From a virus: DNA of 64,000 nt. The stretch lies in IMG/VR virus record IMGVR_UViG_3300020420_000013, positions 4,325-68,324 of that record. One strand, 5' to 3'. The notes beneath the pieces were generated by a model that was not told the DNA's origin, made no database searches, and saw only the letters and a list, made by a program, of their open reading frames with translations. Position numbers and translations under genes: made by a program. Positions within the stretch are counted from its first letter, which is position 1, and each line of letters opens with the position of its first letter. This document shows positions 3,097-35,043 of the stretch, piece after piece.

Positions 3097-5940
3097 TTAG
3101 CCTAGTAAAGTTGCCCACAAAAAGTTGATATCTTCTGCATATTCCTGTGTCACAGAAGCACCACCTCCAGCCGCTAAAACCCATTGTGTCCCGTTCCAAG
3201 TTTCTAAATATCCTTGGTCTTGATTCCAACGTGTAGTACCTTGCTCCGGTGTTCCAGGTCTGTTTGAGTTATTACCTGCTGGTACAACTAGTCCATATAC
3301 ATTGTCAAACTTCAAATAACTGTAAGCATCTGCAAGTCCAAATGTAAACGGAGTGTTTAGTTTGTTGGTTACAGTTTGTCCTTTGAATTCAACATCTTCA
3401 AATGGAATTCCGCCTGTACCATTAGCAAATAAGTTAATATCTGCATCTGCTGTTGCTGATGTTATAGTATTTCCATCTAAACTAAACTTATTATCACTTG
3501 TAAACTTGTTTGTTTGTAATATATGTTGATTTAATAGTGTATTTTGTTGGTTTGCAGTAACAAATCTAAACTGATTATCATTTAAATTAATATATGTGTC
3601 TCTATCTCCATCACGCATAGTTGGAAAATACACTGTACCGCCGTTGTTACCTTCAAATTCTCCTATATCTAAATTATATCTTAAATCTGCAACTTGGTTT
3701 TTACGTTGTACTGTACTACCTGTAGGCAATTCTATAGATCCATTAGCACTTATTGTAAATGATGTGTTTGCATTAAGTCTTAAATCAGTTGCATTTGTAC
3801 TTGCTAAAGTATCGCCACTTGCTGTAATGTTATCAAATATAACTTTTCCTGTTCCTTGCGGATTAAGTTCTAAGTTTGCATTTGTTGATGTTTGTTCTAT
3901 AACGTTATCATATATTCTAAAATCATCTACTAGTGTTTGTGATAGGTTACTGTTCAACCAACGTTTAGTTGGACTACCTAAATTGTAAACCATATGCTGA
4001 TTAGGTTTTATATCTTGTGCAAACGGAGTATTAAAGTCTATTGTATCACTTGGATCATTACCAAAGTTAATCAAAGATCCTGCTAAAGTTACATTACCAC
4101 CGGTAGTAATACTCGGTGCTGTTACATTTGTTTTTAAATTATGCTGTCCTGTTATAGAATTAAAAGTAATATCTCCATCAATACTAGAAACTGTATTAGG
4201 ACTTTTTACTCTTATGTTACCAGTTTGGACTTTTGACCCATCTAAGAAAGTTTCTGCTGTACCTGTGGTAATTTTTAAACTAGTAAGTCCACCTGCAATA
4301 GAACTTGTATCAATACTTGTTGTTCCTTTTTCAAAATCAATAAAAAAGTCGTCGCCTACTCTAAAGTTTCCGCTTTGATCGACAGTTTGATAGTAAACAT
4401 TTCCACTGTTTAATTCTATAATTTCATTTGCTTGATTAATTAATGTTTTATCATTAGTTGGTTCTTTACCTGCACCAACATAAGCCATATTATGTTGTAT
4501 CAAATACATTAAACAATTGGCACCATCTGCCTTTGCTCCTATGTTTCCATATACACAGGCACTTCCAATGGATCTAACCTCTGCTCCTTTAATTAATACA
4601 CTATCACTTCTCCATCTTCCTGGACCATTTAAAGCATACATTCCTGTATTTGCAAAATATGTAAAACAATTTAACCACTCAACTCTTACACCGTTTGTCA
4701 TTGTCAGTGCATCAACACCAGGAGTAATAAATGTTGCCGCGTGGAATAACATACTTGCTTCATTTGTATCATGATCACAAACTTCTCCGTCAACATATAC
4801 GCCTTTTCCTGCGTCTCCTTGTGCAAAACCTCTTGGATCACTTGCAGAAGTAACTGAACCTTTTGTTATTACAGTTACGTTCATTATGTAAGGCGACCTT
4901 GACGTAACCTTTGCACCACTTCTAAAGCGGAATGCGTATCCTGTGTTGTCTGTACTGTTATAATAAAAGTCTTTGATAGTTAAATCTGTTACGGTAGTTT
5001 CACCATCTAGTAAAAAACAATCTTTATCGTTTGTTGCTGTTGTAGGTTTGATTATACAGTTTCTTAAATCTCTACCTTTAATGGTTACGTTTGCTGGAAT
5101 CTGTAAAGGAAATTGTTCTTCATATTCTCCAGGCTCAATATTAATAACTTGTCCTGCTGTTGCAATCGTTAATGCTTTTTTTAAAGTCCTAACTGCACCT
5201 TGTACTGTGTCTCCAACGTTTGTATCTAATCCATTTGTTGCAACATAAATGTTTCCTACACGTTTTGTTAAATCAATACCTTGGTAAATTAAGTTTTCTG
5301 TAAAAACACTGTTGGTTGTTATTTCTTCTGCATACAAACTCATACGTTTTCCTGTTACACCTAGGTCATATGTGTTTGTTACGTCCGGAACTAAATTACC
5401 AACTATGTCAGCATTGATTGTAAAGTTATCTTCATCACCTGTACCAGCAATAATAACACTACCATCGAATGTAATGTTGCCAGTTGCTTTTGTATTACCT
5501 GTTACAGTTACAGTCTTTCCTGCTGTTACAATTTCATTAGTTCCTATTCCATCTGGTCTAATATCAATATCACTATTTGTATTGTAAGTTGAAATTACAT
5601 TGCCGTCTATTTTAATTTGATTAGTTGCTAATCCACCAACGACAATATCTGTTCCTGATTGTAAGTTTATAGAACCTGTTAAACTGTCTATACCTGTTGT
5701 GCTTAATGTTAAATTACCTAAAACTACAGAATTGTTTATGAATAAATCTGGTTGTCCTGCTGTTGCATTTCTAAACTTTGCTGTACCATCAATGGTAAAG
5801 TCTCTAGGTCTAGTAACAGTCTTGATACCAATCTTACCGTCAGAATGACCAATATACAATAGATTAGTTTCTATTGCTAGATCAGTTTGTCTTTGTAAGT
5901 TGCTTTGTAAAAGCGGACCGGATATTCTTCCCAGACTCAT
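3097..5940 (-). CDS. Virion structural fibre/spike protein with parallel beta-helix-like region (947 aa)
   Basis: IYVATNGLDTNVG...RTLKKAL...I.IEPGEYEEQFPL motif typical of beta-helix N-caps. G/T/N-rich repeats. C-terminal PAGNNSNRP...GTTRWN...WNGTQW fibre motif. SD AAGGAG. Confidence 0.7.
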   Translation of the reverse strand: MSLGRISGPLLQSNLQRQTDLAIETNLLYIGHSDGKIGIKTVTRPRDFTIDGTAKFRNATAGQPDLFINNSVVLGNLTLSTTGIDSLTGSINLQSGTDIVVGGLATNQIKIDGNVISTYNTNSDIDIRPDGIGTNEIVTAGKTVTVTGNTKATGNITFDGSVIIAGTGDEDNFTINADIVGNLVPDVTNTYDLGVTGKRMSLYAEEITTNSVFTENLIYQGIDLTKRVGNIYVATNGLDTNVGDTVQGAVRTLKKALTIATAGQVINIEPGEYEEQFPLQIPANVTIKGRDLRNCIIKPTTATNDKDCFLLDGETTVTDLTIKDFYYNSTDNTGYAFRFRSGAKVTSRSPYIMNVTVITKGSVTSASDPRGFAQGDAGKGVYVDGEVCDHDTNEASMLFHAATFITPGVDALTMTNGVRVEWLNCFTYFANTGMYALNGPGRWRSDSVLIKGAEVRSIGSACVYGNIGAKADGANCLMYLIQHNMAYVGAGKEPTNDKTLINQANEIIELNSGNVYYQTVDQSGNFRVGDDFFIDFEKGTTSIDTSSIAGGLTSLKITTGTAETFLDGSKVQTGNIRVKSPNTVSSIDGDITFNSITGQHNLKTNVTAPSITTGGNVTLAGSLINFGNDPSDTIDFNTPFAQDIKPNQHMVYNLGSPTKRWLNSNLSQTLVDDFRIYDNVIEQTSTNANLELNPQGTGKVIFDNITASGDTLASTNATDLRLNANTSFTISANGSIELPTGSTVQRKNQVADLRYNLDIGEFEGNNGGTVYFPTMRDGDRDTYINLNDNQFRFVTANQQNTLLNQHILQTNKFTSDNKFSLDGNTITSATADADINLFANGTGGIPFEDVEFKGQTVTNKLNTPFTFGLADAYSYLKFDNVYGLVVPAGNNSNRPGTPEQGTTRWNQDQGYLETWNGTQWVLAAGGGASVTQEYAEDINFLWATLLG

Positions 5941-8055: not shown

Positions 8056-8673
8056 TTATGACGCCTGTGCGTCTACAACAATACTTCCACTAGTTGCCGC
8101 CGCCTTAGTTGCAACACCACCTGATGTATAAGCAGTGTAACCTGAACCGTCAACACCTGATAACTCAAATGTATTAGTTGCTACGTTGGCTAATGTAAAT
8201 GCAGTTTCTACATTTAATTCAACCATACCAACAACACCTCTGATAGAGATCTTGTCGCCGTTACTAAAACCATGACCGGCTGATGTAATTACAACTGGAT
8301 TTGCCGCTGTCGCTCCTGTGATTGTTTTTTCAATCGCAGTTGAGGCACCTGCTGAATTACGTGACCATTTGTGTCTAGTCGCGCCTTCAAGTTGCATTTT
8401 TCTGTTGTACATTTTTGTAATTTGTTTTGTAACACCGTCACTGTCTGTAACGTTAATACAAAATTCACTAGCGCCTAAGCCGCCAATTGATTTGTTTACA
8501 AGTGTAACAACTTCTGTTTTACTTCCATCAGTAACTGTAAATTTGTTTGCTGATCTTTGATTTATAATATGTGACTCAGTAGTAATTTCTCCACCTGCCG
8601 CGAACTTAACCGCAGTTACTTGGATTTTACCTGCTCCATCACCTATATGTTTTTTATTAATTGGTCTTCCCAT
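8056..8673 (-). CDS. Virion structural protein with E1-FCCH-like beta domain (possible head decoration)
   Basis: ITGATAANPVVITSAGHGFSNGDKI.I.GV.GM.ELN...FEL.GVDGSGYTAYTSGG pattern; strong SD AGGAG. Confidence 0.65.
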   Translation of the reverse strand: MGRPINKKHIGDGAGKIQVTAVKFAAGGEITTESHIINQRSANKFTVTDGSKTEVVTLVNKSIGGLGASEFCINVTDSDGVTKQITKMYNRKMQLEGATRHKWSRNSAGASTAIEKTITGATAANPVVITSAGHGFSNGDKISIRGVVGMVELNVETAFTLANVATNTFELSGVDGSGYTAYTSGGVATKAAATSGSIVVDAQAS

Positions 8674-8690
8674 TTTGTTTCTCCTTTTTT

Positions 8691-8763
8691 AGAGTCCGAT
8701 GCAGGTTCTATCTGCTACGGGGTTTTGTCCCCATAAGTCCACCAAAATTATGTGGCACACTCT
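8691..8763 (-). promoter_or_regulatory. Four-way-junction structured 5' leader (candidate cis-regulatory RNA)
   Basis: Closing stem AGAGU/ACUCU encloses CCAC/GUGG, UAUGGGG/CCCCGUA and GCAG/CUGC hairpins. Sits between a late promoter and the SD. Confidence 0.6.
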
Positions 8764-19637: not shown

Positions 19638-21878
19638 TTAAGCAGTAGCGCCTTGAGCCTGTGCGGCTTTACTTACTACTTTCTTAGCAACTGCGGCTTG
19701 TGGTGTTCCTGCTTTAACACCAGGTGCACTTATTTGATCTTTAACAAGAGCGCCAACTCCTGCTTTTTCAATTTCTCTTGCCAACTCTGCTATTTTAGGA
19801 TTACCTAATTTTGCGGCTGTACCTTTGTCTGCAATTTTACCAGTTTTAGTATTGATCCACTGTGCGCCTTTCCATTCAAAGTCACCACTAACAACACCTA
19901 CGTTTGTACCTTTAGGTGGTTTTGATTTCATATCAAATGGTCCATCATTCTTAGGATCACTGCCTGTTGCACTTGCTTGTCCGCCTGCTGGTGCTGTACC
20001 GCCTGTTGCTTTAGCATCTCCAGTTCCGCCTGTTGCTTTAGCATCTCCAGTTCCGCCAGTTCCTGCGTCACCTGTTCCACCTGTTCCTGTATCGCCGGTT
20101 CCACCTGCTGTGTCTCCACCTGCTGGTGCATCAGGAGTTGTTGCTGTTGCTGGTGCTTCTGGTTGTTTACCGTCTGGTGTTTTTTCAATTGAAACGTTTG
20201 CTTCTTGTCCTATTGCTTGAATGTTATCATTGGATATTCCCATTGATGATAATAAGTTGTATATAGATCCACTATCTGTTGGTGAACCCATTTTTTCCCA
20301 TTCAGAGTTTAATTTTTTTACTGTGATTTTTTGTCCTAGTTCTTTAGCAGTTGATTTAACAGCACCGCCTACTGCACTAGCACCTTTTTTGATTGCACCA
20401 CCTACTTTACCTAAAGCACCTTTAATACCTCTACCTGCTTTAGCACCTAGTGTATTAGGATTGTTTAATGGTAATTCACCTTGTGCATCTGCTGTTGCTG
20501 TTGCCGCCGGTGCTTCAGCCAAATACTGTTCGTATAAGTGTTCGTATGCATCTGCATAAGAAACTGATTCAGTTCCTCTTACTGCAACCTTGTCATCTGC
20601 TGGATTGTCTTCTCCACCTTTTAGTGCTAATTCTAATTGCTCTTTTTCTTTTGGATCAATTGGTTTGACTTTAATTTTTTCTTTTTTGTTATCATCAACT
20701 GTTTGGAGAGCACCTTGTGCCGCCGCCGCTGATGCACCACCTATATCTAGAATTTTTTCAATGGCTTCATCTGCATTGTCTAGTACTGCAATCGCTTGAT
20801 CAATTTGACCACCAGTTATTGCATCTTTTGGAATTTCTTTAATTGTTTGTGCAAGTGCAGAAAGGCTTTCGTTTGCGTCTTGTGTTGTTGATAAGAAACC
20901 GTGTAATCTACCTGCCGCTTCATAATATTCTGGACTGAATGTCTCAGCGGCATTTGCCGCGGCTGATAAGTTTTGATATGTTGCAACTTGATCAGCAGTC
21001 ATTGTTAAATTATAATTGTAAAAGAAGCCGTTGATGTTACCAGACATCTTTAAGTTTCTAGCACCGTCAAGCACACCTGCATCAAATCCTGCGTCTGCTA
21101 CTGCTTTGTCTACTGCCGCAGTGAAGTTGGCTTCTTCAAAGCCTTTCATCATTGCATCTGCTTCTGCTTCACTACCTGTTGCAATGTTATCAGCCATGCC
21201 GTCAGTTAAGCCTTGGATAGCCAAACCAGCAAGAGCACCATATGCCGCTGTTTTAACTGACTTACCAACTGCTGTTGAAAGTTTTTCACCTTGTAATAAA
21301 TCTTTTGTTGAACGTAAAATCAAACCAGCGGCCGCACCACCTAATGGTCCACCTGCAAACGCCGCCACAGTTGTAAGGATACCAACGGCAATACTTGCCT
21401 TGCCTGGATTTTCTTTTGCCCAGTCACTTACTTTTTTAATACCTTGTACAATCTTTGAGTCTGAATTTTCTGCTTCAATTTTCTTTTTTAGTTCATCAAA
21501 CTTTTGATCCATGTTTTTAATAGGACCAGCATTCTGAGCCATTCTGCCAAGTTCATTTATTTTAGCATCTACTTTTTTAGCAAGATCCACAGGAAGTTTT
21601 GCAACGGCTCCTGCCGCACTTCCTACTTTACCTAATGCAGTTTTATTATCTCCACTTGCAATACTTTGTGTTTCTGCACCTTTAAATATTGATTGTATTT
21701 CGTCAGCAGTTAAATTTGCTTCTGAAACTTGTTTGAATTCTTCTAGTAATGGCCAAAGTTCTTTTTCCCATCTGCCAAGATATACTCTTTGCGTTTCTGT
21801 AAGATCTTTGTAACCTTCTGTAAGGATACTTGCTGTTCTATTTGATTTTGGAAATTGATGTACTTCAGTTATTTTCAT
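19638..21878 (-). CDS. Large Ala/Gly-rich protein, putative internal head/ejection protein
   Basis: Begins MKITE...ILTE; glycine-zipper hydrophobic helices; GGTGD low-complexity repeats. Confidence 0.6.
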   Translation of the reverse strand: MKITEVHQFPKSNRTASILTEGYKDLTETQRVYLGRWEKELWPLLEEFKQVSEANLTADEIQSIFKGAETQSIASGDNKTALGKVGSAAGAVAKLPVDLAKKVDAKINELGRMAQNAGPIKNMDQKFDELKKKIEAENSDSKIVQGIKKVSDWAKENPGKASIAVGILTTVAAFAGGPLGGAAAGLILRSTKDLLQGEKLSTAVGKSVKTAAYGALAGLAIQGLTDGMADNIATGSEAEADAMMKGFEEANFTAAVDKAVADAGFDAGVLDGARNLKMSGNINGFFYNYNLTMTADQVATYQNLSAAANAAETFSPEYYEAAGRLHGFLSTTQDANESLSALAQTIKEIPKDAITGGQIDQAIAVLDNADEAIEKILDIGGASAAAAQGALQTVDDNKKEKIKVKPIDPKEKEQLELALKGGEDNPADDKVAVRGTESVSYADAYEHLYEQYLAEAPAATATADAQGELPLNNPNTLGAKAGRGIKGALGKVGGAIKKGASAVGGAVKSTAKELGQKITVKKLNSEWEKMGSPTDSGSIYNLLSSMGISNDNIQAIGQEANVSIEKTPDGKQPEAPATATTPDAPAGGDTAGGTGDTGTGGTGDAGTGGTGDAKATGGTGDAKATGGTAPAGGQASATGSDPKNDGPFDMKSKPPKGTNVGVVSGDFEWKGAQWINTKTGKIADKGTAAKLGNPKIAELAREIEKAGVGALVKDQISAPGVKAGTPQAAVAKKVVSKAAQAQGATA
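19999..20057. repeat. Perfect 27-bp tandem repeat (2.2 copies) in coding sequence
   Basis: ccgcctgttgctttagcatctccagtt x2 plus ccgcc, encoding GGTGDAKAT; degenerate copies follow to ~20120. Confidence 0.85.
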
Positions 21879-22594: not shown

Positions 22595-22601
22595 ATTAAC
22601 T

Positions 22602-22787
22602 ATGGAACAACCAAATACGAAGTTCGTAGTTCTTAAGAAGGGCGAGGGTACTCTGTTGAATAGTTTCGACGAAGCATCGCAATACTTGGGGATAATGGCG
22701 GATCAGCACCCAGAAGAAGAATATGAGATTCTGGAAGTTCATCCTCCGCGACCTAGAGGAATGGGACGAGATCCCGATTTACATTAA
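22602..22787 (+). CDS. Hypothetical protein (61 aa)
   Basis: ORF fills the gap; TAAATA 7 nt upstream. Confidence 0.6.
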   Translation: MEQPNTKFVVLKKGEGTLLNSFDEASQYLGIMADQHPEEEYEILEVHPPRPRGMGRDPDLH

Positions 22788-22790
22788 ACT

Positions 22791-22973
22791 ATGAACAAAA
22801 AAGAAGTTGTAGAATTAGAAAGTGCGTTTCTTGAATTTATGAAAAAAGCAGAAAGTTTAGGCTTTTATTTTTCTAGAGATAGCATTATCACTGCAAAGCA
22901 TAATACAGGAACGAAAAATCAGATTAACACGGAAGTAAGACTTGTGCCAAATGATTATTTAAAGGACGTTTAA
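22791..22973 (+). CDS. Hypothetical protein (60 aa)
   Basis: Follows the previous ORF after 3 nt and ends at the 22974 hairpin. Confidence 0.55.
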   Translation: MNKKEVVELESAFLEFMKKAESLGFYFSRDSIITAKHNTGTKNQINTEVRLVPNDYLKDV

Positions 22974-23386
22974 AGTTGATCTAAAGATCAACTGTGTTTT
23001 CGCTTTCGCTCTAACACTATATCTGTGAAACATTAAGTTGCGTAAGCAACTGCTATCATGTAGATAGTTGAGCCATACTTCGCCCGTCTCCGGGCAAAGT
23101 AAGAAAGCCATCATGTGAGATAAGCGTCCCATCTTAACAAAAAGGATTACATAATAATATGTATGGAAGCGGTAACCCGTCAACTCCCTACCTTAGCCTT
23201 CGCATAAGTTACGGAACATTAATATATCCTTGTTAAGCAAAATATATTAACGGTGTGGTTGCTTTTTCTCAGAGCCACGATCTTTTAATACCTAAGTTAG
23301 TATCAACCTTGCAACGCACGAGAGTCTGATCACAAGATCCATGTGATCTCAACGTGAGTCGAACTATTCCGACCAAACAGTGTTGC
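22974..23386 (-). ncRNA. Candidate ~410-nt structured RNA immediately downstream of the GIY-YIG gene
   Basis: At least ten stems. Mismatches in three long stems become G-U pairs only on the minus strand. GAGA and GAAA tetraloops. 8-bp loop-loop complementarity. Confidence 0.7.
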
Positions 23387-23811
23387 TATTTTAAGCCTTG
23401 AAGTGCTTCTTTAAGAATTTTTGAGCCGCCTACTCTTACGTTTATAATGCCATTGTAATAAGTGTCAGTTTCTAAAACTTTTCTTTCGAATTGTTCTCTT
23501 GCCTCTAAGTAACTTGCTACGCCTCTGCTAGGACAAATATATAAAATTTCCCTAGTAAATTTATCAGTGCCTAATTTTTCTACGTCTTCTTTTAAGTGAT
23601 CATTGGAACCCCAATAGTCTTTCCAGTCACTTTCTACTTTGCTTCTACGTTTGTTTATCTTGCCCTTGAGTGGTGGGCGTGTCTTTTTGAATTTAGCGAG
23701 TTTTTTGCCTACGTACTTACGTCCATTGGTTGTATTTGTAATAAGATATACAAAGGCTTCACAACCAAGAGGTAATTCTTTTACTACTTTTCCTTTGTAA
23801 GTCCATTGCAT
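23386..23811 (-). CDS. Stand-alone GIY-YIG family endonuclease (~141 aa)
   Basis: AFVYLITN..NGRKYVGKK (GIY-YIG strands), YWGS, FTREIL, YLEAREQ (catalytic Glu), YYN. ATG 23811 preferred, with TAAGTA 5 nt upstream. Confidence 0.8.
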   Translation of the reverse strand: MQWTYKGKVVKELPLGCEAFVYLITNTTNGRKYVGKKLAKFKKTRPPLKGKINKRRSKVESDWKDYWGSNDHLKEDVEKLGTDKFTREILYICPSRGVASYLEAREQFERKVLETDTYYNGIINVRVGGSKILKEALQGLK

Positions 23812-23828
23812 ATGGATACTTACCAAGT

Positions 23829-24044
23829 CTATTTGTCCTGCTCGTCTTTTTTGGAATCTGCTCTGCGATTTACGTAACTGTCTTGAACTTCGTTCATTCG
23901 TATTTTGGCTAGATCACGTATTTCTCTAAGCCATCGTCTGGTTTCACGTCTAGGTCTTATTCCACCTGTCTTCTGATAACTTTCGTGTGCTTTAAAATAT
24001 TCTAAATATGCTTTTACTAGTTTGTCGTGATTATCATCAGTCAT
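23829..24044 (-). CDS. Small basic helical protein, histone H1-like (Hc1-type) resemblance
   Basis: R.RRWLREIRDLAKIR..EVQ resembles the RARK.L.EI.KL.K..R pattern of Hc1-like proteins. Confidence 0.55.
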   Translation of the reverse strand: MTDDNHDKLVKAYLEYFKAHESYQKTGGIRPRRETRRWLREIRDLAKIRMNEVQDSYVNRRADSKKDEQDK

Positions 24045-24048
24045 TGTA

Positions 24049-25188
24049 TTATGCCAGTAATGTTACAATTTTCCCTGCAAGTCCTTTAAACCATTCTTCA
24101 TCATGACCTCTTGTAGTTTCTGCGGCAGTACCAATTCTGATTCCACTTGTTTCAACAAAAGATCTTGGATCATTTGGAACTCCATTCTTATTTACTGTGA
24201 TACCATTTTCCTCTAATAGATTTGCGGCATCCTTACCTGACCATTTAGTGTCACTCAAATCTAACAATAGTATATGACTATCTGTGCCATCTGTTAATAA
24301 TTTATACCCTTCGTCTTTAAAAACCTTTGCCATTGCCTGTGCATTAGCAACAACCTGTTTCGAATATTGTTTAAATTCATCTGTGTTTGCTTCAATGAAT
24401 GCCTGTGCCTTTGCGGCAATGATATTCATCAATGGACCACCTTGTGTGCCAGGAAAAATTGCACTATTGATCTTTTTAGTATAATCAGGATTGTTCCATA
24501 AAATTATTCCGCCTCTTGGACCTCTTAATGTTTTGTGTGTTGTGCTTGTTACAAAGTCTGCGTATGGTATAGGACTTGGATAGGCATCGCCGGCAATAAG
24601 TCCTGAGTAATGTGCCATATCAACTAATAAGTATGCTTTTACCTTATCTGCTATGTGTCTAAACATTTTAAAATCTATTGCTCTAGGATATGCACTAGCA
24701 CCTGCTATAATCATCTTAGGTCTTATTTCTTGTGCCTGTGCCATTATGGCAGGATAGTCTAACAAACCCTTTTCATTTACACCATAGTGATGTGCGTCAT
24801 AAACTTTTCCTGAAATGTTTACCTTAGCACCATGACTTAGATGTCCTCCACTTGCAAGATCCATTCCTAGGATTTTATCTCCTGGTTTAAGGAACGCAAG
24901 ATAAATTGCCGTGTTTGCGTTTGCTCCACAATGTGGTTGCACGTTTGCAAACTCACAACCATACAATTCTTTTAGTTGATCTATTGCAAGTTGTTCTATT
25001 GAATCCATGTGTTCACAACCGTTGTAATAACGTTTGCCTGGATATCCTTCTGCGTATTTGTTTGTAAATACCGATCCTGCAAGTTTCATTACATCTTCTG
25101 ATGCAAAGTTTTCACTTGCAATAAGTTCTACGGTAGCATTTTGTCTACCTATCTCTGAGTAAAGTATTGAAGTTATTCTTTTATCCAT
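24049..25188 (-). CDS. glyA: Serine hydroxymethyltransferase (auxiliary metabolic gene)
   Basis: LIASEN, NKYAEGYPGKRYY, GGHLSHG, DMAH, TTHKTLRGPRGG (PLP lysine), FPGTQGGP, SGIRIGT. Confidence 0.97.
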   Translation of the reverse strand: MDKRITSILYSEIGRQNATVELIASENFASEDVMKLAGSVFTNKYAEGYPGKRYYNGCEHMDSIEQLAIDQLKELYGCEFANVQPHCGANANTAIYLAFLKPGDKILGMDLASGGHLSHGAKVNISGKVYDAHHYGVNEKGLLDYPAIMAQAQEIRPKMIIAGASAYPRAIDFKMFRHIADKVKAYLLVDMAHYSGLIAGDAYPSPIPYADFVTSTTHKTLRGPRGGIILWNNPDYTKKINSAIFPGTQGGPLMNIIAAKAQAFIEANTDEFKQYSKQVVANAQAMAKVFKDEGYKLLTDGTDSHILLLDLSDTKWSGKDAANLLEENGITVNKNGVPNDPRSFVETSGIRIGTAAETTRGHDEEWFKGLAGKIVTLLA

Positions 25189-25585
25189 TTTTTGCTATTC
25201 CTATCATACGTTCTACTAAACTGCCAAAGCCAACTTGTCTTTGCATTGTTAAAAGATTTCTGATACCTAACCCTTCAAAACTTTCTAAGGTTAAGTGTGC
25301 TATTTCGCTACGATGTTCACCGTCTAAAAGGTCTACTAAAACTTTTGCAGTACCTTTTGTTATCCAAGCATCTGCATCATGTTTATAGGACATTGTTCCG
25401 TCTTTGTTTATTGTTCCTACTACCCACAAATTACTTGCACAACCTCTGATTTTATTATCGTCTATTTTTTCGCTGTCGTCTAAAGGTTCAACTTCTCTTG
25501 CTATATCAATAAGATATTGTAATCGATCATGCCCTTCTAATGGAGCCATTTCTTCGCCACGTTCTTTTATCTTATCTAATATCAC
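25181..25585 (-). CDS. sufE: SufE-family sulfur acceptor (Fe-S cluster assembly; auxiliary metabolic gene)
   Basis: DRLQYLID, IRGCASNLW (conserved Cys), DADAWITKG, L...RQ.GF. Confidence 0.88.
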   Translation of the reverse strand: MILDKIKERGEEMAPLEGHDRLQYLIDIAREVEPLDDSEKIDDNKIRGCASNLWVVGTINKDGTMSYKHDADAWITKGTAKVLVDLLDGEHRSEIAHLTLESFEGLGIRNLLTMQRQVGFGSLVERMIGIAKNG

Positions 25586-27357
25586 TGTTCCACTATTTCA
25601 ACATCATTTGCATAACTTGTAAAGCCGTTTTCCTTAATAACCTTTAATACATTGTTTACCCGACCTTGCAATTCGTCCTTATGCGAAATGATATAAATGT
25701 TTTTATCTCTTTCTCTACCCATCTTCTTAAGTACTGCTAAACTAGATTCTACACCAGCAGTATCCATACCACTATCAATAAGTTCATCAACAAACAATAA
25801 GTTAATGTTTTGATATAAGCCTTCCCATACATCTCTAAATGCCCAACTTAATCCAAGTATAAGTCTATTACGTTCACCTCTACTTAAATTGTCAAAGTCA
25901 AGGTCTTGACCTAACTGTGTTATTTCAACTGCTAGGTCATTTTTAAATACCACAGAGTGTGGAAGACCAAGACGATCAAGATAGAACGTAAGTCTGTTGT
26001 TAAGATATGCGAGGTTCTGGTCGATTATCTTCTTACGTATAAAACTATCTTTGTTTGTGAGAAGTTTGTATAAAAATTCTTGATGTTCTTTATGACTTGT
26101 AAGGTCATTAACTTTATTCCAATTTAATTCTTGGATTGCAGTATTTTGTAATTCTTCAATTTGTTCTGTGTAAGGATCTTTATCTTCCTTTGCTCTTTTC
26201 AATGCGTCTTTTAAGTTTTCAATATTACTTCTATGATCATATGCTTCTTTGGCAGTTTCATAGAATGTGTTTGGCTTATCAGTAATTTCACCAATCTCAT
26301 CTAGTTTTGCTTTTACTTTTTCTGCCTTTTCATTTATTTCAATCAAGTAGGTTGTAGTTTCACCATACTCAGTTTGAAGTTTTGTTTGTATTTCTTCTAC
26401 CTTTTCATCTGGCAAATCTTGCCCACAAGCATAACATTTTGCATCTTCAAGATCATCTAATTCTTTGCTTACTTTTGCAAGGCGTTTGTCAGTTTGAGAT
26501 AATGCACTCTCTAACGTTGCTTGTTCTTTAATTAAGTTACGTTGATGTTTTTCTGTTTCATTCCAACTCTGTAACTTTTCATGGTCTGCAATTTCTTTGT
26601 CTATATCAATATGTTCAAGTTCATCTACACCGCTATCAAGTTTTTTAATATTTGTTTCACGTTGTTGTTCCCAAGCACTTAATTTAATCTTTAAACTTTC
26701 AACACTTTCTTTTACACGTTCATTACTTTCTTGTATTGCATTTATTTTTGCATTTTCTTCTGTAATACTATCCCTAGTTACTTTCATGTGTTCACGTAAC
26801 ACATTTGCTTTTTCAGATAGGATTGTAATACCTAATAACTGTTCAATAATCGCACGTTGATCATTTGGCTTCATTGCAAGGAATGGCTCTGTATATGTGT
26901 TTAATGCAATTAAATGCTTAAACATATCGTGACTCATTTGTAATAATGTGTCTATTGTTTCTTGTGTTTTACGACTATCTCCTTGCGACTCATCTGTAAG
27001 TTCTTGCTCTTCTTCATCAACAAAAAACTTTAGTGTGTTTGGACTTCTACCTCTTTCAACTCTATACTTTGTATTATCTTTTTCAAAGTTAAGTGTAACT
27101 AACATTCCTTTATTATTAGTCTTATTAATTAAATTATTTTTACGAATGTTTGTCAGTGCCACACCATACAACGCATAAGATAGTGCGTTGATGATGGTGG
27201 TCTTACCTGTACCGTTTCTTGAGCCTGAATCGTCTCCCCCTTGATCTAAGTTCTCTCCTAAAACTAGCGTCAGTTGTCTATTACTAAAGTCAACTGCCTG
27301 GGTTTGATTTCCCACACTCATAAAGTTCTTAACGGTTAAGTCTTTAATCTTTATCAT
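25582..27357 (-). CDS. gp46: Recombination nuclease ATPase subunit (T4 gp46, Rad50/SbcC-like)
   Basis: KNFMSVG, Walker A NGTGKTT, zinc hook CYACGQ, signature LSRGE, Walker B LLFVDE, ISH. Confidence 0.95.
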   Translation of the reverse strand: MIKIKDLTVKNFMSVGNQTQAVDFSNRQLTLVLGENLDQGGDDSGSRNGTGKTTIINALSYALYGVALTNIRKNNLINKTNNKGMLVTLNFEKDNTKYRVERGRSPNTLKFFVDEEEQELTDESQGDSRKTQETIDTLLQMSHDMFKHLIALNTYTEPFLAMKPNDQRAIIEQLLGITILSEKANVLREHMKVTRDSITEENAKINAIQESNERVKESVESLKIKLSAWEQQRETNIKKLDSGVDELEHIDIDKEIADHEKLQSWNETEKHQRNLIKEQATLESALSQTDKRLAKVSKELDDLEDAKCYACGQDLPDEKVEEIQTKLQTEYGETTTYLIEINEKAEKVKAKLDEIGEITDKPNTFYETAKEAYDHRSNIENLKDALKRAKEDKDPYTEQIEELQNTAIQELNWNKVNDLTSHKEHQEFLYKLLTNKDSFIRKKIIDQNLAYLNNRLTFYLDRLGLPHSVVFKNDLAVEITQLGQDLDFDNLSRGERNRLILGLSWAFRDVWEGLYQNINLLFVDELIDSGMDTAGVESSLAVLKKMGRERDKNIYIISHKDELQGRVNNVLKVIKENGFTSYANDVEIVEQ

Positions 27358-28358
27358 AATTCGCCATATATTTCTAATAGTTTCTGTTTGTTATAATTCT
27401 CAGAATCTATTGCATCGATTTCATGTGTAACGATTTGATCAACACTTTCAAATTTTGTAATATCAATATCAGTATTAATTTCATCTACTTGCTGACTTGG
27501 TAATAACGTAATCTCTCTACACTTATATTCATTAATAAAGTTTTCTTTTATAAAACTTGCTTCTTCAAAACTTATATCAATATCAAGTGTTACTCTAAGA
27601 TAAGTTTTAGTACCAATAATTGTATCTTTTTTATCAATTAATTCGCTTAACTTAATAGTTCTATACTTTGGACAGTTAGGCCAATTTAAATATCTTGGTT
27701 CTCCTCCATATTCAAAAATCATCATACCACGTTCATCGTCCCACGTATCAGCATAGTTGTGAGGCATTGGATTACCAATATATGTTACGTTACCGTGTGT
27801 TTGCCTTTTGTGAAAGTGTCCACTAAAAACATATTGTTGATGTTTAAAGTGTTCAGACTTCAATTCGCCTGTGTCTGGCATTTGTACCATTGCGTTCATA
27901 TAGAAGTTTGGCAGTTCAAAATGTCCAAACATATATTTTGCTTTAATCTTAGGAATCTTTTTCCATTCTTCACCAACCAACCACGGAACAAGACACACAT
28001 CATCTTTTTCAGTTATTTCATTTACAACAGTTATACCTTCAATGTGTTTTGCATATTCTACAGAATGAACATCACGTTTGTCTTTATAATACAAATCATG
28101 GTTGCCTGGAAAATAAAAGAATTGATCAAATGCTTTTCCTAACTTTTCTAAACAACGGATAGAGTAATCCATTGTTACTACATTTAAACTATTTCTATTG
28201 TGATGCCAGTCACCCATAAAGATGCCTGTCTCACAACCTTCTTTTTTTGCTTGTTCGATATACCAATCTACAAATTCTTCACAGTCATCATTATGGACTT
28301 TTGAATTAGACTTTAGTCCAAAGTGTATATCCGTGAATACAGCCGCTTTTTTAAACAA
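27354..28358 (-). CDS. gp47: Recombination nuclease subunit (T4 gp47, Mre11/SbcD-like)
   Basis: DIHFG, GDWHH, GNHD, GHFE, SGHFH phosphoesterase motifs; TTG start with GAGG SD. Confidence 0.95.
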   Translation of the reverse strand: MFKKAAVFTDIHFGLKSNSKVHNDDCEEFVDWYIEQAKKEGCETGIFMGDWHHNRNSLNVVTMDYSIRCLEKLGKAFDQFFYFPGNHDLYYKDKRDVHSVEYAKHIEGITVVNEITEKDDVCLVPWLVGEEWKKIPKIKAKYMFGHFELPNFYMNAMVQMPDTGELKSEHFKHQQYVFSGHFHKRQTHGNVTYIGNPMPHNYADTWDDERGMMIFEYGGEPRYLNWPNCPKYRTIKLSELIDKKDTIIGTKTYLRVTLDIDISFEEASFIKENFINEYKCREITLLPSQQVDEINTDIDITKFESVDQIVTHEIDAIDSENYNKQKLLEIYGEL

Positions 28359-28409: not shown

Positions 28410-29240
28410 CTATTTCTTCTCAGTTTTCTTATATGCATCAGCCACCGATTTTTCCCATTGTCCTTGCATCTGTCTTGTAAAGGACGGACTCATGTCGTTC
28501 ATTTCTAAAATGTCATCTCTTATATTTTGATTACGTTTTTCAATGTTTATAACTCTAACAAACGAATTTGTTACAGCCGCGGTGTAGTAAGCAAAAGGAT
28601 TGTTTGATTTTGATTCATCAAACTGTAATCCGATTTGTGTTAATTGTAATATTGCTTGACCTTTCATTTCGTCATTGTATGTGTAACCTCTTACGTTACC
28701 TCTTGTAGCATAACGTTCACAAAGTTTCATCCACATACGAGCAAGTTTTTCTGTAGTCTTACCATGCTCTTTGTTAAAGTTTCCATTTGACATACCACCT
28801 TCCCAGTGGGATTTGCCTACAGTCATCAATTTGTCTGTTGATGTAAACTTAAAATGTTGAAATGGTGGAAAATTTAATTTTTCTTTAGTATCAGCAATAG
28901 TTTTTGGGTTTTTCTTCCTGCCTTTATCTTCTGGGATATGATCATACGTCATAATCCTAAAGATCAACTCATCTTTCTTAATTTTTCTATAATCAATGGC
29001 ACATTCAGCCTGTTTTACTTTTTCCCCTAGTTCTTTACGCCTTTCATACTCTGCGGTAGATAATCTCTTTGCCTTATTCCTTTTGGCTTCAGCAATGGTT
29101 CTAACGTTGATTTTGTCTACACTTGGCAATATAATGTCATATTGTGCATGATCATCGTCAGTATAACTGCAATAAGAGGTTTTGCTCTTATGTATTTCTT
29201 TCAAAAGGTCCTTATTATTAAGGTAATTGACTCTTTTCAT
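28410..29240 (-). CDS. gp55: Late-transcription sigma factor (T4 gp55 family)
   Basis: NYLNNKDLL, YTYNDEMKGQAILQL, FDESKSNNPFAYYT...NSF.R.I..EK; adjacent to gp47 as in T4-like phages. Confidence 0.88.
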   Translation of the reverse strand: MKRVNYLNNKDLLKEIHKSKTSYCSYTDDDHAQYDIILPSVDKINVRTIAEAKRNKAKRLSTAEYERRKELGEKVKQAECAIDYRKIKKDELIFRIMTYDHIPEDKGRKKNPKTIADTKEKLNFPPFQHFKFTSTDKLMTVGKSHWEGGMSNGNFNKEHGKTTEKLARMWMKLCERYATRGNVRGYTYNDEMKGQAILQLTQIGLQFDESKSNNPFAYYTAAVTNSFVRVINIEKRNQNIRDDILEMNDMSPSFTRQMQGQWEKSVADAYKKTEKK

Positions 29241-34596: not shown

Positions 34597-35043
34597 ATGA
34601 GTACACAAGAAAAAGATGTAATTAAAACAGTAAAAGTCCAAACAGCAAAAAGGGCCAAACCACCTATTACTAGTCGTGCTTACCGTGGTACTAGCACTGT
34701 TGATCCTAATGCAAATAGTTTTAACTTGTATGATCTTGCACTAATCAAACAGGACATTATTAATATGTTTCATATTAGACAGGGTGAAAAGTTAGAAAAT
34801 CCTGAATTTGGAACAATAGTGTGGGACGCATTATACGAACCACTAACAGAACAATTAAAAGAAGCCATAGCAGAGAACGTTACACAAATTGTAAACTACG
34901 ATCCTAGGGTAACAGTAAACAACGTTACAATAGATCAATACGAAAGTGGATTACAAATTAATGTTTCAATGACATATTTGCCTTATAATATATCAGAATC
35001 ATTGCTTTTGACATTTGATCAAAATGCAGGATTTATATCATAG
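34597..35043 (+). CDS. gp25: Baseplate wedge/sheath initiator (gp25 family)
   Basis: LIKQDIIN.F.IRQGEK..NPEFG..VWD.LYEP, YDPRV. Confidence 0.9.
   Translation: MSTQEKDVIKTVKVQTAKRAKPPITSRAYRGTSTVDPNANSFNLYDLALIKQDIINMFHIRQGEKLENPEFGTIVWDALYEPLTEQLKEAIAENVTQIVNYDPRVTVNNVTIDQYESGLQINVSMTYLPYNISESLLLTFDQNAGFIS

Follow-up and report, generated by a model that had tools for sequence, protein, structure and literature searches.

A 64,000-nucleotide (nt) stretch of viral DNA (IMG/VR record IMGVR_UViG_3300020420_000013, positions 4,325 to 68,324; hereafter the window) contains, on its minus strand at 22971..23387, a structured noncoding RNA of approximately 415 nt that lies directly downstream of a gene for a small GIY-YIG nuclease. 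An original prediction, made from the letters of the window alone, had proposed that the two form a nuclease-RNA module. Our comparative analysis demonstrated that the RNA has a pseudoknotted fold on the minus strand, that its family extends over phages and bacterial genomic islands, and that the RNA and the GIY-YIG gene each occur without the other. The RNA represents an uncharacterised RNA class in a new, phage-borne and much larger form, and its conserved core is, as shown through intermediate sequences, homologous to the orphan Rfam motif RF01712. We consider it probable that it is an autonomous RNA of mobile elements and not a partner of the GIY-YIG nuclease.

The RNA begins with a conserved AGCAAC, located at the stop codon of the nuclease gene, and ends in a terminator hairpin with a short U tail; its positions are numbered such that position p is window coordinate 23388 - p on the minus strand, position 1 being the A at 23387. 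The nuclease gene (23386..23826, minus strand) encodes 146 amino acids (aa) from a TTG start. No open reading frame (ORF) was conserved across the stretch of approximately 400 nt in the 80 loci compared, and a 74-aa ORF of the window itself (22959-23183) was not common to its relatives. The minimum free energy of the minus strand gave a z score of -4.85, with none of 100 shuffled sequences as stable, and the fold of the plus strand was weaker (z = -3.63). A search with the protein provided 80 viral loci as the basis of an RNA alignment set; the noncoding stretch was found by blastn in 68 of these, in every case immediately after the GIY-YIG gene and in the same orientation. The window RNA and 27 diverse full-length relatives were aligned with MAFFT (28 sequences), and RNAalifold predicted 53 pairs on this alignment, 40 of them with compensatory changes, so that the covariation among homologs that had been proposed as a check was found. 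A hand-built structure of 108 pairs, scored on the same alignment, had 80.5% of its cells paired compared to 68.2% when partners were shuffled, a value that none of 500 shuffles reached, and only 38 to 50% when partners were slid by one to three columns; 70 of the 108 pairs changed on both sides. Four hairpins with loops of variable length (P3a, P4, P14, and P15) were misregistered by MAFFT and were instead folded sequence by sequence. Within the core (RNA positions 100-258), 93.7% of cells were paired versus 74.4% after shuffling, with 33 of 47 pairs changing on both sides, and in 72 distinct core sequences the values were 88.0% versus 60.2%. The alignment contained 155 G-U cells and 19 A-C cells, an excess which indicates that the folded molecule is RNA from the minus strand, the strand of the nuclease. 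The prediction of a noncoding structured RNA of approximately 410 nt, and of an RNA on the nuclease strand rather than a DNA cruciform, was therefore borne out, although its description as almost fully paired was an overstatement: 216 of 424 nt, about half, lie in supported helices.

The RNA has at least 15 helices and two pseudoknots (all on the minus strand). The 5' domain (23311..23387) is closed by P1 (23382-86, GCAAC, with 23311-15, GUUGC), which encloses P2 (23357-74) and P3 (23353-56 with 23317-20), the latter carrying the hairpin P3a (23329-48). All five pairs of P1 and all four of P3 changed on both sides, 97.8% of P1 cells and 100% of P2 cells were paired, and P3a covaried in the register chosen by RNAalifold and formed a hairpin in 25 of 28 sequences. 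P1 had been described as closing on the nuclease stop codon; the pairing is real, but the overlap is incidental, since approximately 70 nt separate the two in some relatives. In others, the whole of P1 to P3a is swapped for a different 5' domain. Next comes P4 (23285..23306), a hairpin with a conserved loop of the CUAACU type, for which the MAFFT register was too shifted for column counts; a hairpin of at least 4 bp formed here in 27 of 28 sequences, with differing stem letters.

The conserved core, for which we built the covariance model R1 (RNA positions 100-258, window 23130..23288), comprises P6, P7, P8, P10, P11, and both pseudoknots. In P6 (23255..23278), a GUGG/CCAC helix encloses the near-invariant internal loop CUCUGAGAAAAAGCAA; the loop letters were invariant in the 28 sequences, while the helix was 100% paired, with up to four pair types at three of its four pairs. 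P7 (23217..23252) is a hairpin of 14 bp, rather than the 13 bp first counted, and all 14 pairs changed on both sides in the 72 distinct sequences. Its loop contributes the 5' strand (CUUAACA, 23231..23237) of pseudoknot PK1, whose 3' strand is UGUUAAG at 23133..23139. This kissing-loop or pseudoknot pairing, part of the original prediction, was confirmed: both-side changes occurred at six of seven pairs in 24 sequences and at all seven in the 72 distinct sequences, the alignment of which was made by a model that did not contain the PK1 pairing. The 5' strand of the second pseudoknot, PK2 (GUAACU, 23207..23212), directly follows a conserved CCG, and its partner is 23172-77, within the P8 loop; four of its six pairs changed on both sides, and it was paired in 100% of cells in the core alignment and in 91.5% in the 72 distinct sequences. 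The P8 hairpin itself (23165..23188, GGGAGU/GCUUCC) was 99.3% paired (95.5% in the 72 sequences). P8 and P11 are closed by P10 (23191-94 with 23142-45, spanning 23142..23194), which was 96 to 98% paired with both-side changes at all four pairs, and P11 (23148-63) changed on both sides at four of six pairs in the core alignment and at all six in the 72 sequences. We discarded a further helix that would close the core, AAGAU/AUCUU, in favour of P10, with which it competes and for which there is covariation.

After the core comes P13 (23077..23100), a 10-bp hairpin with a GAGA tetraloop that was 89.9% paired, mostly with one-sided changes, and is followed immediately by the near-invariant stretch GUAUGGCUCAACUAUCUACAUGAU. 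A hairpin at 23053-67 that had been listed as a stem forms in the window, and confirmation in relatives was not obtained; for the region 23053-23134 no choice was made between a pairing of AUGG (23129-32) with CUAU (23064-67) and three alternatives. P14 (23036..23051) formed a hairpin in 24 of 28 sequences with differing stem letters, and a variable A/U-rich linker (23018..23035; 0 to approximately 45 nt in relatives) separates it from P15. The latter (22994..23017; UGAGCG..AGCGAA) has a tandem G-A internal loop and a 4-nt loop of the GNNA type, GAAA in the window; it formed in 27 of 28 sequences, its inner GC pairs were 94.4% paired, and it is common to every subtype of the RNA, including those with a different 5' half. 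The terminal hairpin P16 (22974..22993) changed on both sides at seven of eight pairs. All 11 stems named in the original prediction were thus present where they had been placed, most with compensatory changes in relatives, and the list had missed P2, P3, P8, P10, and the second pseudoknot. Several long single-stranded runs were invariant across the 28-sequence alignment.

We then asked how closely this RNA is tied to the nuclease gene. An exact 29-mer of the RNA, located after P13, occurs in 66 viral contigs, 63 of which have the GIY-YIG gene directly upstream; the other three contigs end 61 to 236 nt before the motif. The RNA does, therefore, follow this gene in the phage clade of the window, as had been noticed from the window itself. 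Because the clade shares the gene order SbcD, SbcC, small gene, GIY-YIG as a whole, linkage alone says little. A broader sample was obtained by scanning viral contigs for an exact 18-base word of the P6 loop, which was present in at least 120 contigs; 80 loci were taken from these, of which 79 matched R1 and 78 matched an nhmmer profile, and the latter 78 served as the neighbour sample. In this sample the GIY-YIG gene was upstream on the same strand at 52 loci (109 to 377 nt before the motif and, in one case, 859 nt) and divergent at one, a PDDEXK_15 nuclease gene (PF24608) took its place at nine, and other genes were found at 16, a split that is rough, because the sample was drawn by exact word from the larger set of contigs. 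Counted by RNA sequence clusters (n = 42), the same split was 21, 1, 6, and 14. The other neighbours included porin-like, cysteine-dioxygenase-like, and nucleoside phosphorylase-like genes, DUF6614, and several unknowns. The flank of the RNA thus lacked GIY-YIG in 25 of 78 loci. Conversely, tblastn detected homologues of the nuclease in 571 phage records, mostly cyanomyophages, and three complete phage genomes that carry homologues of approximately the same length, Melnitz-3 (71% identical), phiM19 (44%), and P-SSM2 (39%), gave no R1 match at an E value of 0.01 or less (best E value, 0.81). In P-SSM2 the next gene begins at the last base of the homologue, in phiM19 it follows after 28 nt, and in Melnitz after 148 nt. 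The RNA occurs unlinked to the nuclease, and strict gene-RNA linkage, which had been proposed as a check of the module, failed; the proposal that the RNA is the scaffold or specificity partner of this nuclease is not supported from either side.

The search for a guide pointed in the same direction. A search for a variable segment matching host or phage DNA had been proposed as a check; the linker at 23018-35 had no second match within two mismatches on either strand of the window, its nearest match being one same-strand site with three mismatches at 34959. This linker is internal and not terminal and so does not look like a guide, and both ends of the RNA are conserved helices (P1 and P16), with no variable terminal guide found. 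At two loci (L155 and L169), an SbcC homologue (61% and 52% identical to that of the window) directly precedes the PDDEXK_15 gene and the RNA, and either GIY-YIG or PDDEXK_15 forms a discrete, alternating cassette, the end of which lies no more than approximately 16 nt from the 5' end of the RNA. That PDDEXK_15 takes the same slot in related phages suggests that the adjacency reflects conserved gene order or homing-type insertion, and not an RNA-protein machine. The GIY-YIG gene was present at every T4-like locus with the RNA that did not carry PDDEXK_15 instead, and no such locus with an empty nuclease slot was found among those examined.

The nuclease itself matched Pfam SegE_GIY-YIG (PF19835; E value, 8.8e-34) over residues 8-128 of 146, with no second domain found, and PHROGs family phrog_447 (E value, 2.8e-37). 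The label "NAD synthetase" that phrog_447 and GenBank give to this family looks wrong, as both the Pfam match and the predicted fold are those of a GIY-YIG nuclease domain. Homologues align from an internal Met at residue 6, which suggests that this ATG may be the true start. An AlphaFold2 model built with 13 homologues had a pLDDT of 89.2 and predicted a single compact domain, for which the best fold in the Protein Data Bank (PDB) was the catalytic domain of I-TevI (1mk0; probability, 0.97; TM score on the target, 0.65; E value only 0.07); PDB sequence and profile searches with the 146-aa protein gave no meaningful match. Y27, Y38, R60, E108, and N125, which we take to be the catalytic Tyr, Tyr, Arg, Glu, and Asn, were invariant in nine homologues, and R60 was not invariant across 13 more distant ones. 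The protein is a catalytic domain only, with neither linker nor DNA-binding tail, and this is also true of the family members that lack the RNA. The original prediction had pointed to a minimal GIY-YIG domain with a basic insert; both are real, but the insert is no sign of dependence on RNA, since it is complete in the RNA-less homologues of Melnitz and phiM19 (and shortened in that of P-SSM2) and is therefore a trait of the family.

The family of the RNA extends well beyond these phages. R1 matched 61 of the 80 GIY-YIG-derived viral loci. When the P6 word was scanned over one genome per prokaryotic species, most matches were due to chance; of 80 loci examined, 10 matched R1 over its full length, with scores of 25.8 to 114 bits. 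The carriers were metagenome-assembled genomes (MAGs) of Legionellales, Polynucleobacter, Burkholderiaceae, Dechloromonas, and Sphingomonadaceae, isolates of Oxalobacteraceae (two records), Erythrobacteraceae, and Methylophilales, and Endobacterium cereale. At the same places in the bacterial loci, nine of which were tested, the Rfam model RF01712 (Methylobacterium-1) scored 49.9 bits in Polynucleobacter (cut-off, 40 bits) and 35.3 and 31.1 bits in two others, and the bacterial sequences align with the phage RNA well beyond the 103-nt RF01712 motif. This motif corresponds to P4, P6, P7, and a conserved CCGU (RNA positions 174-177), a correspondence made by inspection and not by score. The comparison of the window with Rfam that had been called for gave no family match for the RNA at the gathering score over the whole window, permissive scans of the region around it yielded nothing meaningful, RF01712 gave nothing against the window RNA at an E value of 10 or less over either 1.6 kb or 141 nt, and ten related T4-like loci gave no RF01712 or RF01718 match at an E value of 0.1 or less. 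The likeness to Methylobacterium-1 thus lies in the scores of the bacterial relatives, and the function of that motif is likewise uncharacterised; the window RNA differs in being phage-borne and four times longer, in failing to reach even an E value of 10 against the model, and in features absent from that model, namely, its multibranched 5' domain, both pseudoknots, and its 3' domain.

A second Rfam motif, RF01718 (Polynucleobacter-1; gathering score, 37 bits), was located directly 5' of the core in three viral relatives (L201, positions 829-973, 91.5 bits; L186, 1068-1210, 80.3 bits; and L191, 812-961, 38.7 bits). There it appears to serve as an alternative 5' domain; Rfam scans found it absent from the window RNA, whose P1 to P3a form a different fold. 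With RF01718 as a 5' domain and RF01712 as the core, both look like parts of one larger RNA class, in which the 5' domains would be exchangeable. In the table of a 2010 survey (PMC2864571), Methylobacterium-1 is listed as a likely RNA that is not cis-regulatory, from Methylobacterium and marine sequences, and Polynucleobacter-1 as coming from Burkholderiales and from fresh water or estuary; literature searches under the two names found nothing relevant beyond this survey. Approximately a quarter of the GIY-YIG loci (type B; L014-L034 and L067-L075) have a different structured region of approximately 450 nt, with another 5' and central half, which shares with the window RNA only the 3' domain, namely, a repeated ACAUGAU word, P14, P15, and the terminator. 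This word occurs twice in all subtypes, and in another subtype both copies change in parallel to CGUGAU.

The five bacterial genomes examined had one to three copies of the RNA each. The copies adjoin tyrosine integrases or serine resolvases, and one lies directly after a tRNA gene. In the family to which the Polynucleobacter genome belongs, only one of 101 sampled genomes, the starting genome itself, has the RNA (stricter Infernal filters were used here). Taken together, the integrase and resolvase islands and the occurrence in one of 101 genomes indicate that the RNA is cargo of mobile elements and not a housekeeping RNA. The existence of the RNA without the nuclease, both in viral loci and in these integrase islands, best fits an independent noncoding RNA, which the original prediction had named as an alternative. 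On contig 27 of the Polynucleobacter genome, two inverted copies of the RNA core lie approximately 44 kb apart (65934-66089, plus strand, and 110275-110431, minus strand), one of them following an integrase of phage type and the other in the vicinity of a pair of HNH genes; the copies may mark a single integrated element or two. A blastn search with three variants of the RNA found no match in cultured phages among 50,697 phage records, a set from which records very close to the window may be missing.

Several known systems were compared with this locus. The arrangement in the window resembles that of the omega RNAs of IscB and TnpB (HEARO, OMEGA), where a long structured RNA is likewise encoded at the end of a same-strand nuclease gene. 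The nucleases of those systems are, however, of the RuvC type (with HNH in addition in IscB), compared to a GIY-YIG domain of 146 aa here; nuclease and RNA are paired there, whereas here each occurs without the other; and the omega RNA has a terminal guide, whereas the window RNA has neither a terminal guide segment nor a transposon context. With SegE and I-TevI the protein shares the GIY-YIG catalytic domain, the I-TevI fold match, and the conserved catalytic positions, but known Seg and I-Tev enzymes have an appended DNA-binding domain that the window protein lacks, and its family appears to be near-constant in cyanomyophages (the 571 records noted above) rather than sporadic, although its genomic contexts differ in P-SSM2, phiM19, and Melnitz. 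GOLLD and ROOL resemble the window RNA in extending over hundreds of nucleotides, in having many helices and pseudoknots, in being carried by phages or integrated elements, and in having no known function; the loop-loop contact of the window RNA could, in principle, also act between molecules. GOLLD and ROOL are described as ornate RNAs of large size that are frequent in phages and prophages (PMC12286853). Unlike them, the window RNA has no tRNA genes nearby (ARAGORN detected no tRNA or tmRNA in the window), and neither the window nor 39 related loci gave an Rfam match to them. A 2023 catalogue of viral RNAs (PMC10690425) gives, in the part consulted, 10,006 candidates of 29 to 151 nt; two words of the RNA were absent from six of its supplement files, with files 1, 2, and 4 lying outside the search, so a fragment may be listed there.

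Taken together, these results are most consistent with an RNA class carried by mobile elements, namely, uncultured marine T4-like phages, further viral contigs, and, in a few Proteobacteria, islands with integrase or resolvase genes. In the T4-like phages, the RNA sits at the end of a late-sigma, SbcD (gp47), and SbcC (gp46) gene string. Its transcription would depend on read-through of the upstream gene or on a start immediately before P1, and the transcript would end at P16, which may also terminate the convergent genes as a two-way terminator; P16 was scored as a terminator for the plus strand, with the tail GUGUUUUC, and on the minus strand, where it is followed only by UUU, it was not scored. 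With its numerous invariant unpaired nucleotides, the RNA could act in trans by scaffolding a protein or another nucleic acid, by assembling with itself, or by ribozyme catalysis. It would not guide the neighbouring nuclease, and the GIY-YIG protein would be a stand-alone catalytic domain of the SegE/I-TevI type within the recombination and nuclease gene set of the phage.

A number of observations weigh against this interpretation of an autonomous RNA. The trans-acting mechanism is one that we infer. No sigma-70-like promoter was found directly upstream of the RNA, minus-strand promoter-like sites nearby lie only inside it, and the conserved AUAG before P1 has no explanation. Parts of a 1.5-kb stretch around the RNA were present in 16 runs recorded as RNA, and contigs of four marine metatranscriptomes (at least 85% likeness over 22600-24100) covered the RNA and its flanks alike at a depth of 2 to 7; the contigs show neither ends nor strand, and because the flanks are covered as well, they allow no verdict on transcription. 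Nuclease neighbours are far above random expectation, with GIY-YIG at 53 loci and PDDEXK_15 at 10 when a divergent case (L192) is included, even if the proportions are rough. Linkage to GIY-YIG holds down to 38% protein identity (L191), a weak Endonuclease VII-like neighbour, below the Pfam cut-off, occurs at L175, an SbcD-like metallophosphoesterase lies downstream of the RNA at L201, and HNH proteins resembling type IV restriction enzymes are encoded no more than two genes away from the RNA in three of five bacterial neighbourhoods. Conserved gene order explains the T4-like cases and not obviously all of them. The recurrence of nucleases beside the RNA is the main unexplained fact: it may reflect conserved gene order with nonorthologous replacement, insertion by homing, or a real functional link, the first two of which were not separated by our data. 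For this reason, that several nuclease families recur beside the RNA without a full explanation, we regard the interpretation given in the original prediction as partly supported.

The best surviving alternative, which we nevertheless consider unlikely, is that homing-type endonuclease genes settle beside the RNA gene because it is a conserved cleavage site in rival genomes, with the function of the RNA being independent of them. SegB settles in this manner inside the tRNA gene cluster of T4, and GIY-YIG, PD-(D/E)XK, HNH, and Endonuclease VII-like are fold families used by homing endonucleases. The neighbours of the RNA belong to these four families, and PADLOC labelled the window protein "homing endonuclease" with weak E values. 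The alternation of GIY-YIG and PDDEXK_15 as a cassette ending near the 5' end of the RNA, the long invariant runs of the RNA, including the exact 29-mer of 66 contigs, and the different genomic contexts of the GIY-YIG family in P-SSM2, phiM19, and Melnitz are all compatible with this explanation. Homing, however, predicts empty sites, and no T4-like RNA allele without a nuclease gene was found; nor does the near-constancy in cyanomyophages of the GIY-YIG gene, which in P-SSM2 is labelled as part of a shared gene cluster, resemble the sporadic distribution of selfish genes, and the DNA-binding domain that known Seg and I-Tev enzymes possess is missing from the protein.

We judge as more doubtful still the possibility that the RNA serves the adjacent nuclease, of whichever family, as scaffold, specificity partner, inhibitor, or activator, which would yield an RNA-dependent device of mobile elements for DNA cutting or recombination. 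In its favour are the 63 of 63 testable 29-mer loci with GIY-YIG directly upstream, the same-strand upstream position of this gene in 52 of 78 motif loci even at 38 to 55% protein identity, the filling of the slot by PDDEXK_15 where GIY-YIG is missing at the gp46 site, the further nuclease genes that flank the RNA in other contexts, and a protein without a separate DNA-binding domain of its own. Against it, three complete phage genomes that lack the RNA have members of the same protein family, with equal length and the basic insert, one of these homologues being 71% identical, and in 14 of 42 RNA clusters the gene before the RNA is an unrelated or unidentified one. A single RNA would need to be bound by three or four nuclease folds that are unrelated to each other, hypervariability is confined to one internal segment for which the window offers no second match at up to two mismatches, and a literature search, at the level of listings, for GIY-YIG enzymes with structured or guide RNAs found no natural RNA-guided GIY-YIG system. 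Finally, the stretch could be a cis-acting element, either an extended and folded 3' untranslated region with a role in stabilising or terminating the upstream operon or, at the level of DNA, a replication origin or similar element. This would agree with the constant position of the RNA at the 3' end of a gene string, its two-way terminator, and the lack of a promoter of its own, but is scarcely credible given two covarying pseudoknots and many invariant unpaired letters far beyond the needs of a terminator or stabiliser, a G-U over A-C excess that excludes a double-stranded DNA signal, and the presence of the same RNA after unrelated genes and in bacterial islands.

The surroundings of the RNA in the window, which is part of a viral contig of 68 kb, were also annotated. 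The minus-strand gene string in which the GIY-YIG gene lies begins with a gp55-like late sigma factor gene (28410-29240), an SbcD-like (gp47) gene (27354-28358), and an SbcC-like (gp46) gene (25582-27357), followed by genes for a 134-aa protein, a serine hydroxymethyltransferase-like protein, a 71-aa protein, and the 146-aa nuclease. The serine hydroxymethyltransferase-like and 134-aa genes (24049-25585, minus strand; families F14 and F12) are inserted between the SbcC-like and 71-aa genes only in the window and a few relatives, and the 134-aa product appears by eye to resemble SufE. Two small convergent genes lie 3' of the RNA on the plus strand. A 60-aa ORF (22791-22973, plus strand; family F13) separates the RNA from the next convergent gene and was found in only some relatives (4 of 32 loci); one metatranscriptome contig runs from 22799 to 22973 and skips this ORF, which indicates an insertion/deletion polymorphism. 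Elsewhere in the window, a full-length Rfam freshwater-2 RNA (RF02980) was detected at 8671-8755 on the minus strand (68.1 bits; cut-off, 49.9), its 3' end consisting of a ribosome-binding site and an AUG; no other Rfam family reached its gathering score in the window. A 746-aa ORF (19638-21878, minus strand) has a long Gly/Thr/Ala-rich run of GGTGDA-type repeats and no PHROG match, and is overlapped on both strands by several long spurious ORFs.

The reading of this locus as an RNA-guided GIY-YIG system thus fails its own linkage test, and the recurrence of nucleases beside the RNA still calls for an explanation. It is conceivable, if improbable, that mobile elements have a new RNA-dependent DNA-processing system in which interchangeable small nucleases (GIY-YIG, PDDEXK_15, and HNH) encoded beside the RNA have it in common as their targeting, activating, or restraining subunit, or that the RNA is a new large ribozyme or self-assembling RNA acting on DNA ends in recombination-dependent replication or in conflicts between elements. 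Large, intricately folded RNAs of bacteria and phages with no known function are rare, and each has opened new biochemistry. The RNA described here is frequent among uncultured T4-like phages of marine origin, and a single 18-base word of it occurs exactly in at least 120 viral contigs. It ties two orphan Rfam motifs from 2010 into one bigger RNA class of phages and genomic islands, and in doing so gives them a context, that of mobile elements, often beside nucleases and integrases, with isolate genomes among the carriers.

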